NCBI RefSeq assembly: GCF_054482595.1
Contig: NZ_CM137008.1
Strand: one strand, 5' to 3'
DNA: 64,000 nt
The first letter of the stretch is position 1; every line of letters begins with the position of its first letter. Made by a program: the position numbers. Positions 29,401 through 32,400 of this stretch are shown one piece after another.

Positions 29401-32400
29401 CAGCCTCCTGCATACCATAGTTCAACGATAACCAGTATGAATCTTTCAGGCTGGGATAAAGCGCGCACAGTTTCCAGGCGCGTTTGGCTTTAAGCGGCAT
29501 AGAGGCTTGCACCGTGAAATGCTGCGCATCATGCCAGCGCAACAGGTTATCAGCCGAAAATGCCGGCAACATGAAAAGGGAAAGAAGTAAAAATAGCAGT
29601 ACGCGCATGATAGCCTCATCAATAATAAGGCTTTATGCTAGATGCATTCCGCTTTGCGACTCAACATTTTTCACCTAAAGGATGACAAAATCACATAAAT
29701 AATTTAAAAATCATAGCATTAGATTACTTAATGATTAAATAATAGACTGCAAAACGCGACAAAACACAACATATCCAGTCACTATGAATCAACTACTTAG
29801 ATGGTATTAGTGACCTGTAACAGAGCATTAGCGCAAGGTGATTTTTGTCTTCTTGCGCTAATTTTTTGTCATCAAACCTGTCGCACTCCAGAGAAGCGCA
29901 ACGCCTCGCAATCCAGTGCAAAGCTTTGCGTGCCCCCACTACGACCTGCATAACCAGTAAGAAGATAGCAGTGATGTCAAACGACGCAGATGTCTTCTTT
30001 TCTTTCATGACTTCTCCAGCATGCATATCTTTCTGCCATGACTGAAGTGAATGCCTGTTATGAGCGAGGATTGGCCCAGACTTAGATAATGAGAGAGCAC
30101 GGTGCTAATACCCAGACACGTCACCAGCCAGGCAACAACAGATGGGGTCATAGCAACATTTTGGAAGGTATCTTCGTATCATGATGTGGTTAAATAGACA
30201 TAATTTAACCCAATGGAATTTTCGCCATGCTAACCTTCTGGCACGAATATTCAGATCTCATATCCGCATTTTTAGCAGCTCTTTTAGGTGGCTGTTTCAC
30301 GATGATTGGAGTGACAACTCAGGTGAAACAGCAGGCAAAACAGCAGGCAACAGCGGCCAGAGAGAAGCGTATAACAACGCTATTGGGTGTCAGAGAGGAA
30401 ATAGACTCACTGATTAAACTGTATCAGGCCAGAATGGCAGAAGAAATCGAAAAATACGACCGGAACTCACCGTTCGATAACATTTTCCCCATTACTCAAA
30501 ACTACTTCACGTTCTATGAAGCCAACTCGGCATCCCTACCTGAAGTTCATAGAGAAACACTCTCAAAAATTGTGGCTTTTTATACAAGCGCAAGAAGCCT
30601 AATTGATTCCTATCGCGGCAATAATGCGCTTATCGAACGGCTAGACTCCACGCAGGTTGCAAGTGACATTACTGGCAACAAAGAACATCTTGCACACCTG
30701 AAAAGATACACAATCCTAGCCACAGAGTACGGCCGCGGATTAATGATGATTCATGATGAGGTCATGCTCCGCTATAAACAGGTTATAGAAGCCATCGATG
30801 GTGAAATCTCACAGCTACAATGCAGTTAGCACTACAACCTGTCCGCATATTGAGCGACACGGTCGGATTTAGTGGGCTGAATGTCCGTTGTGAGCACTTA
30901 ACGGACATTGCTAACCGCCTTCTGAGTGAATTATCAGGGAGTAGGTCAAGATGGGACGTAGAGCACAAATCGTGGACAACATTTTTCGGGCACTTTTTAA
31001 AAATGACTAAACTGGTAAAATTCGATGTTATGAGCTGCGCTTTTAAGGGCCGTTAGTCGCATAGATTGTTAATCTATTCAGCGTTACTCATTCTCCAGAT
31101 TACCAGTTTAAATGGATGCACGGCCACCATGTTAAAATCTAACGCGGCCCTAAAGTCAGAGTGTAATGGGAAATGCAAGAAGTTATTTTCGTGCGCGTTC
31201 ACTGGCGCACCTTGAGCAACCATTTCTCAATGCGTCTTAAAAGAGATGACTTGACTAAATTATGTATGCACTATCTGAATCTGATTTTTTTACTTAAAAG
31301 GGGGTTTTCAATGACAGCAATAGCCTGCTGGCTAAACAGGGAAGAAGGGGAAAGTATCTGGGCCGTAAGCGACTCAAGAATCACCCAGCATGAAAGTGTA
31401 ATGACAAATCACTGTCCTAAACTATTCTCGATTCCGGTATCAGTTATTCGCTCCAATGACATATACCGTCTATCTCCGGAAAAAATTATGGAGTTTGGTT
31501 TCGGCTTTGCAGGAGGAACAATGATCGGTATAAATGTGAAGGAGTTACTTGCCGTATCATTATCTTCATTACATGAAGTTAATTATTATGATGTTCAGCA
31601 GCCGGAGTTGACTTATGATAGTTACCCGAGTCTTTATGAAATTGCAGTTTTAACAAAGGGAATCGCAGAAAAATTTATACTGGATATTGGCCAGTTTTTT
31701 CCCCGTTCTGTAGCAACGGAGATGATTATTTACGGATTCTGTTTCAGAACACAGGTACATAAAATCATTAAGATCTACAACACCCCATCAAACCCCACTA
31801 ATCTTGTAATTGAGGACTGCCTTGACCTGACAACAGGTACCCCGGTAGTCTTGGGAGACAGAAAGCAGCAGTTTCGGGAAGATATTGAGATGACGAGGGG
31901 GCGTTTTGAGAATGGCACACTTAACTGGTGGCGGGCGCCATTTATCGCGTTAAACAACTGGATATCACAGGACACCGTAAATACAATTGGTGGGTATATT
32001 CAGTTCTCAATGGCGAATAGAATTGGCGCAAGAAATCTTTTTATGTCCAGCTCAGAGTCTAACCCCCTTGATATGACCTATGCCGGAATCAGTAATACAA
32101 GTGCTCCAGGATTTACCATTGGACAACTTAGTATTATGCCAATGTTAGGTATGACCCTTCCTGGGGAAAATGGCTGGCCATACGGCGATCAAATACTCCA
32201 TAATGATTAGAAGGTTAAGTATTTTATATTGGATATATGGCTATTGTGCTGCCATGATTCTAACAAATTATGCTTAAGAGGTGGTGCAACTCCTCTCATA
32301 CAAAAAATACGTAAAATCAGTAACGGCTGGAAATAATTCAATACATACACTCTCGAAAGTGCATCAGCCAACCGCAGCACGTCTTGCATACGGCGTGTCT

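Follow-up and report, generated by a model that had tools for sequence, protein, structure and literature searches.

With a probability of about 0.9, positions 29609–29869 of the window, by which we mean the whole 64-kb stretch of DNA analysed, constitute the attR (P-O-B′) of a lambda-like prophage at the canonical HK022 attB in the torS-torT intergenic region. The anatomy of this junction, as described below, holds for the present strain with equally high confidence. The prophage lies between torS on one side and the IscR operator and torT on the other; the torT side is seen directly in the window, and the displacement of torS is taken from related genomes. The first-pass annotation had located a core, its overlap, and two arm-type Int sites within 29609–29830, and all of these elements are present at the places given there.

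The tor genes next to the junction are intact. torT (28580–29608, minus strand), which encodes a periplasmic TMAO-binding protein of 342 amino acids according to the ORF list and is annotated as torT in EC5502 and 4FM, starts with an ATG at 29606–29608 (minus strand), and both torR (27915–28607, plus strand) and torCAD (torC, torA, and torD; 23471–27833, minus strand) are full length. The 61 bp adjoining the torT start codon (29609–29669) are bacterial DNA, namely the end of the torS-torT intergenic region nearest to torT, and form the B′ flank. This flank includes the B′ core-type Int site AAATGTT (29663–29669). It is followed by the 7-bp overlap AGGTGAA (29670–29676; TTCACCT on the plus strand), which is of the HK022 type and forms the crossover region, and by the C core-type Int site ATCCTTT (29677–29683), which is on the phage side and identical to that of HK022 attP; all three are on the minus strand. 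The HK022-type core ATCCTTT/AGGTGAA/AAATGTT thus occupies 29663–29683 on the minus strand, with one substitution in B′ relative to AAAGGTT, and the core sequence CATCCTTTAGGTGAAAAATGTTG is the reverse complement of 29663–29685. In three-way alignments of the window, HK022 attP, and K-12 attB, the sequence is phage DNA as far as ATCCTTTAGGTGAA and K-12 attB DNA thereafter. The match to the chromosome ends at 29677, and the match to phage attP runs on from that point in the alignments with the HK022 and lambda attP sites. The overlap AGGTGAA is common to the window attR, HK022 attP, and K-12 attB and is duplicated in attL of 4FM and EC5502; its boundaries are reportedly those of Yagil 1989 and of Kolot and Yagil 1994. 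We measured 61 bp between the overlap and the torT ATG, close to the earlier estimate of about 65 bp. Because the P arm and tI/sib, and not the P′ arm or int, adjoin the core on the phage side, the junction is P-O-B′ and hence attR, in the orientation originally claimed. Rfam and tRNA scans of the junction returned nothing relevant; therefore, insertion into a tRNA or tmRNA target is ruled out.

The P arm (29684–29819, minus strand) was delimited by alignments with the attP sites of HK022 and lambda. Nearest to the core are a putative H2-like IHF site (29709–29721) and a putative X2/Fis-like site (29737–29757), both proposed only from their position and partial similarity. Farther out, the arm contains X1 (29760–29775), located by alignment with HK022 and lambda attP; the P2 arm-type Int site CAGTCACTAT (29776–29785, plus strand), an exact match to the arm-type consensus; the H1 IHF site between P2 and P1 (29787–29799), with the exact IHF consensus; and the P1 arm-type Int site ACAGGTCACTAAT (29806–29818, minus strand), assigned by sequence match. 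The suggestion that a lambda/HK022 P arm with arm-type Int sites lies beyond torT is borne out by these P2 and P1 sites. The arm is bordered by the tI/sib hairpin and a subsequent U run (29820–29869, plus strand), which are identical to those of lambda and HK022. According to the alignments, P1, H1, P2, X1, and tI are all identical or nearly identical to their HK022 and lambda counterparts, and the HK022 record X51962 labels the matched stretch “attP site” and “sib transcription processing site”. RNA folding of tI/sib gave −24.3 kcal/mol (z = −4.0), and the hairpin is oriented to terminate plus-strand transcripts. A terminator scan found no match at tI because the stem is interrupted by mismatches and falls outside the short perfect-stem and loop rules of the scan; the hairpin was revealed by folding. 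tI/sib is the int retroregulation/terminator element, which is parted from int in the prophage state. A 77-aa ORF on the minus strand (29793–30026) runs over the P arm; without any family match and unannotated in the relatives, it was taken as spurious.

Short motifs by themselves, including the IHF consensus, are not above chance. With one mismatch allowed, the arm-site consensus gave five matches (4.3 expected) and the core gave two (0.75 expected). The second core match, at 60256–60266 with one mismatch, lies between Q and the lysis genes, just downstream of Q (60426–61049). It is at chance level and is not attL because the colinearity with 4FM continues to 64000; the 64-kb window has no second copy of the core. 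The junction region as a whole is 89.5% identical to HK022 attP over 209 bp (E-value 2e-72) and 87.7% identical to the lambda P arm (E-value 7e-66). The identities are 98.1% with phage vB_EcoP-611R6, 96.7% with phage Gally, and 87.8% with five records of Stx1a-converting phages (LC744179 and others). The deposited ends of these Stx1a phage records contain the same host junction, and the core is annotated there as “duplication due to insertion”. Insertion by a lambda-type Int at a secondary site, or a chance resemblance to att sites, would fit both the motif counts and the outer P arm (tI, P1, H1, P2, and X1), which is equally near to lambda and HK022. However, the overlap is AGGTGAA and not TTTATAC, the 21 bp nearest to the core do not differ from HK022 attP, the host flank belongs to the canonical HK022 attB, the E-value is 2e-72, and the integrases of the relatives carry HK022-specificity residues. 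The alignments refute this explanation, to which we attach almost no weight, and uphold the earlier assignment of the junction to the HK022 type rather than the lambda type.

Compared with the prophage-free torS-torT region of K-12, the torT-proximal host flank is identical in 60 of its 61 bp, in keeping with the insertion site first proposed. The single mismatch is at 29666; apart from it, the host side to the right of the overlap equals the K-12 sequence GCACTTTAGGTGAAAAAGGTTGAGTCGC. The mismatch is a G-to-T change on the minus strand that converts AAAGGTT to AAATGTT in the B′ core-type Int-binding site and alters the C of the CTT motif found in all four HK022 core sites. The full 64-bp stretch with this allele has exact matches in 369 of the 5,415 E. 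coli genomes searched, including O157:H7; it is a common host allele, and a lineage-specific lesion was ruled out. Judging from its sequence, the insertion site is the canonical HK022 attB and not a secondary lambda site. The distance of about 70 bp between torS and torT first given for K-12 was only approximate: 82 bp separate the annotated torS GTG from the torT ATG, and 112 bp lie between the experimentally confirmed torS ATG (PMC6814406), positioned here from the sequence, and the torT ATG. Carey et al. 2019 (PMC6814406) locate the shared IscR operator to the torT-proximal side of attB. As a guess, the palindrome AGCCT-N11-AGGCT at 29611–29631 is a candidate for this operator.

The genes torS and int, attL, and the P′ arm were not found within the 64-kb window. 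The complete genomes of 4FM and EC5502 have the same torT-attR junction, and their prophages are ~99% identical to that in the window. The gene order in both is torS-attL-int-xis ... stf-tfa-cargo-attR-torT, with a prophage of ~48 kb, and torS is ~48 kb from torT, directly downstream of int-attL. The separation of torS from torT and torR that had been proposed is thus supported by the absence of torS from the window and by its distant location in both relatives. A matching core repeat, on which the initial reading depended, is present at the other prophage end of the relatives, where the attL cores duplicate CTTTAGGTGAA, with one SNP in EC5502. The attL core of 4FM is GCACTTTAGGTGAATAAGTTG, and that of EC5502 is the same save for one T-to-A change; in the extracted EC5502 sequence (441–461), the core reads GCACTTAAGGTGAA, compared with GCACTTTAGGTGAA in K-12 and 4FM. 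The 11-bp duplication in the EC5502 lysogen is imperfect because this T-to-A change is in the B core-type site. In the relatives, the core starts 7 bp from the annotated torS GTG. Their P′ arm is identical to that of HK022 over all ~170 aligned bases, and the integrase that they encode shares 97% identity with HK022 Int and 75% with lambda Int. Int of 4FM carries D99, P282, K283, K287, and R319; these residues reportedly switch lambda Int to HK022 specificity (a finding ascribed to Dorgai, Yagil and Weisberg 1995). From these features, the integrase of the relatives is judged to have HK022 specificity. We infer that the far end of the prophage in the present strain (xis-int-attL-torS) is arranged as in 4FM and EC5502.

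Alternatively, attR could be a relic junction of a prophage whose left end is defective or rearranged by an int/attL deletion, an inversion, or a tandem prophage. In such a strain, torS would not adjoin an HK022-type P′ arm, and the rewiring discussed below would not apply. The left end of the prophage is outside the 64-kb window, large torS-torT rearrangements occur in several strains studied by Carey et al. (PMC6814406), and the present strain has active insertion sequences, with an IS2 in cbpA ~7 kb away. Yet the strains in which Carey et al. saw rearrangements still had a prophage adjoining torS at attL (PMC6814406), and 4FM and EC5502, the two complete genomes examined, both have an intact xis-int-attL-torS end. 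In addition, the whole 34.6 kb of prophage DNA in the window matches an intact prophage colinearly, and the late genes are undisrupted. We consider a relic junction improbable and retain an integrated prophage with int and attL next to torS as the preferred reading.

The lambda-like prophage body (34006–64000, minus strand) comprises tfa, stf, lom, and J, followed by the tape measure, capsid, portal, terminase, lysis, Q, and nin genes. It runs past the right end of the window (64000), and the cargo genes lie between attR and tfa. The part of the prophage within the window is colinear with the 4FM prophage (99.3% identity over 34.6 kb), and none of its late genes is disrupted. These late genes are ~96% identical to those of lambda-like phages of the ECOR collection, and on this similarity the phage outside the integration module is classed as lambda-like and not HK022-like. 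It is very probable that the prophage is a complete-looking lambda-like siphovirus with an HK022-type integration module. Differences from the 4FM prophage cluster in the stf, J, tape-measure, and tail genes (35000–41999 and 44000–50999), with at most 48 per kb, and the remaining prophage is nearly identical to that of 4FM; this mosaic pattern is as expected for recombination in host-range genes.

The low-GC “b-region” cargo (29870–34000, plus strand; GC 31–45%) contains three plus-strand ORFs. ORF1 (30227–30829, 200 aa) and ORF2 (31173–32210, 345 aa) are low in GC (40–45%) and are located between attR and ea47, a position taken by ea31 and ea59 in lambda. ORF3 (32618–33877) is ea47 (phrog_19262), with 97.9% DNA identity to lambda ea47 and a GC content of 31%. 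ORF1 has an N-terminal hydrophobic stretch that, judged by eye, is a possible transmembrane helix. Neither ORF1 nor ORF2 had an informative match in Pfam, PADLOC, PHROGs, or PDB sequences, nor a tblastn match in 50,697 phage records. ORF1 gave a sub-threshold PADLOC match to ZorB/MotB (E-value 0.002), and AlphaFold, run on the single ORF2 sequence, gave a model too poor to use (pLDDT 36). The full cargo stretch (29900–34000) is covered in only four of 5,426 complete E. coli genomes. ORF1 and ORF2 could be a new moron or defence pair.

Several other features were observed in the window. wrbA (16836–17432, plus strand), another classical Stx-phage integration site, is intact and unoccupied and is located ~12 kb from the torS-torT site. 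An IS2 element (21171–22501, minus strand) with the ORFs InsD (21182–22087) and InsC (22045–22455) interrupts cbpA, which encodes a curved-DNA-binding DnaJ homologue, after approximately codon 138. The cbpA fragments are at 20758–21170 and from ~22502, the gene is intact at this place in 4FM, and the BLAST segments at IS2 overlap by 5 bp, as expected for an IS2 target-site duplication. A hypothetical ORF of 447 aa (2413–3756, plus strand) is present between efeU and putP; it is also hypothetical in 4FM (WP_115739726.1), has no NCBIfam family, and is preceded by ~1.1 kb without large ORFs (1240–2412). This ORF is not known as part of the K-12 gene order, and it may be a small accessory insertion.

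The HK022 attachment site has reportedly been known since the work of Yagil et al. in 1989, and HK022 attB is also used by the CRIM and OSIP integration vectors. Using a 211-bp probe across the junction and requiring that at least 80% of it be covered, we found a junction of the same type in 197 of 5,426 complete E. coli genomes (3.6%). This occupancy is close to that given by Carey et al., who reported a prophage at this site in “roughly 5%” of E. coli (PMC6814406). The torS-torT region figures among the integration loci listed for Stx1 phages (PMC10042803). Phage Gally of LF82 integrates at the same locus, and the rewiring finding has been extended to Gally (PMC9928086). The torS-torT prophage junction and its rewiring have therefore already been described, and the present case is ordinary, being one more natural example.

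The closest parallels differ from the present prophage in separate modules. HK022 shares its attB position, the 7-bp overlap AGGTGAA, and the C site with the present prophage, and the layout of P1-H1-P2-X1 and tI/sib is conserved; the identical P′ arm and the 97% identical Int are features shared between HK022 and the relatives 4FM and EC5502. In contrast, the P arm in the window is only 89.5% identical to that of HK022, most of the divergence falling between X1 and the core, and HK022 is 40.7 kb long compared with ~48 kb here, where the remainder is lambda-like (lambda-type head, tail, stf/tfa, and ea47). Gally of the AIEC strain LF82 and the Stx1a phages of O26:H11 share the locus and the attR type, with P arm identities of 96.7% (Gally) and 87.8% (Stx1a phages). 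However, the present prophage differs from these phages in its cargo genes and from Gally in its late-gene module, and it has no stx between Q and the lysis genes. Lambda attR at the gal-bio attB has the same architecture and almost identical tI, P1, H1, P2, and X1, but its overlap is TTTATAC instead of AGGTGAA and its core sites differ; therefore, its chromosomal target and Int specificity are different. The system of Carey et al. 2019 likewise has a prophage at attB(HK022) that parts torS from the IscR operator and torT, with int reading outward to torS. The P′ arm promoter region of that system is conserved in the relatives, from which the attL side is deduced for the present strain.

Carey et al. 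showed that integration at this site puts torS under a phage promoter in place of its own promoters (2019, eLife 8:e49081; PMC6814406). HK022 in MG1655 destroys one native torS promoter and leaves the other with torT. Transcription of torS in this lysogen comes from the phage promoter and is stronger, and a terminator placed at attL abolishes the phage-driven torS transcription; torT transcription is unchanged (PMC6814406). Because TorS then outnumbers TorT, TorR stays dephosphorylated in the presence of air (PMC6814406), so that torCAD is silent aerobically and normal anaerobically, and bet hedging is lost on sudden anoxia. The natural lysogen NRG 857C behaves like the HK022 lysogen (PMC6814406), and its prophage is presumably related to Gally. 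Measurements of the phenotype cover only two cases, HK022 in MG1655 and the NRG 857C prophage, and the authors warn against generalising it to every prophage and host (PMC6814406).

We propose a corresponding course of events for the present strain. Int-mediated site-specific recombination would have occurred at HK022 attB in the 82-bp torS-torT intergenic region, with the crossover within AGGTGAA, 61 bp upstream of the torT ATG; torT therefore retains its native upstream sequence with the IscR operator. torS, ~48 kb off and beyond the window, would come to lie immediately after int and the P′ arm. If the HK022 lysogen is a guide, the native torS promoters would be lost, one ablated and the other pointing into the prophage, and the phage promoter of the P′ arm would drive higher, IscR-independent torS transcription, with torT still repressed by IscR. 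The excess TorS would act as a TorR phosphatase in air, turning torCAD off aerobically and leaving it normal anaerobically, with loss of TMAO bet hedging.

This strain is likely to have the same regulatory phenotype as the HK022 lysogen, since the torT side is native and intact and the P′ arm in near-identical prophages equals that of HK022. The first-pass annotation had proposed that the prophage could “rewire or inactivate TMAO sensing”; of these, the published experiments bear out rewiring and not inactivation, as torS is raised via the phage promoter in the lysogen (PMC6814406). A regulatory outcome unlike that of HK022, in which the junction is as described and torS is silenced or torCAD shows no net effect, is a less likely alternative. 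Only two lysogens were tested by Carey et al., who cautioned against generalising (PMC6814406), and the present prophage is lambda-like and not HK022 outside the int-att module; however, NRG 857C, a B2-group strain with another prophage, showed the HK022 pattern as well (PMC6814406). Under the preferred reading of HK022-like rewiring, the orphaned torS promoter (TSS1) on the torT side would read in the plus direction into the P arm, toward tI/sib and the cargo genes. If tI is leaky, this oxygen- and Fe-S-responsive host promoter might drive ORF1, ORF2, and ea47 in a reciprocal rewiring, which we consider very unlikely. If it did so, the host would control phage genes while the phage controls torS.

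The junction adds a natural example to a phenomenon documented in 3.6–5% of E. coli genomes and raises no new question by itself. It identifies the strain as an attB(HK022) lysogen, which is predicted to over-express torS from a phage promoter, to leave torCAD unexpressed aerobically, and to lose TMAO bet hedging upon a sudden oxygen drop.
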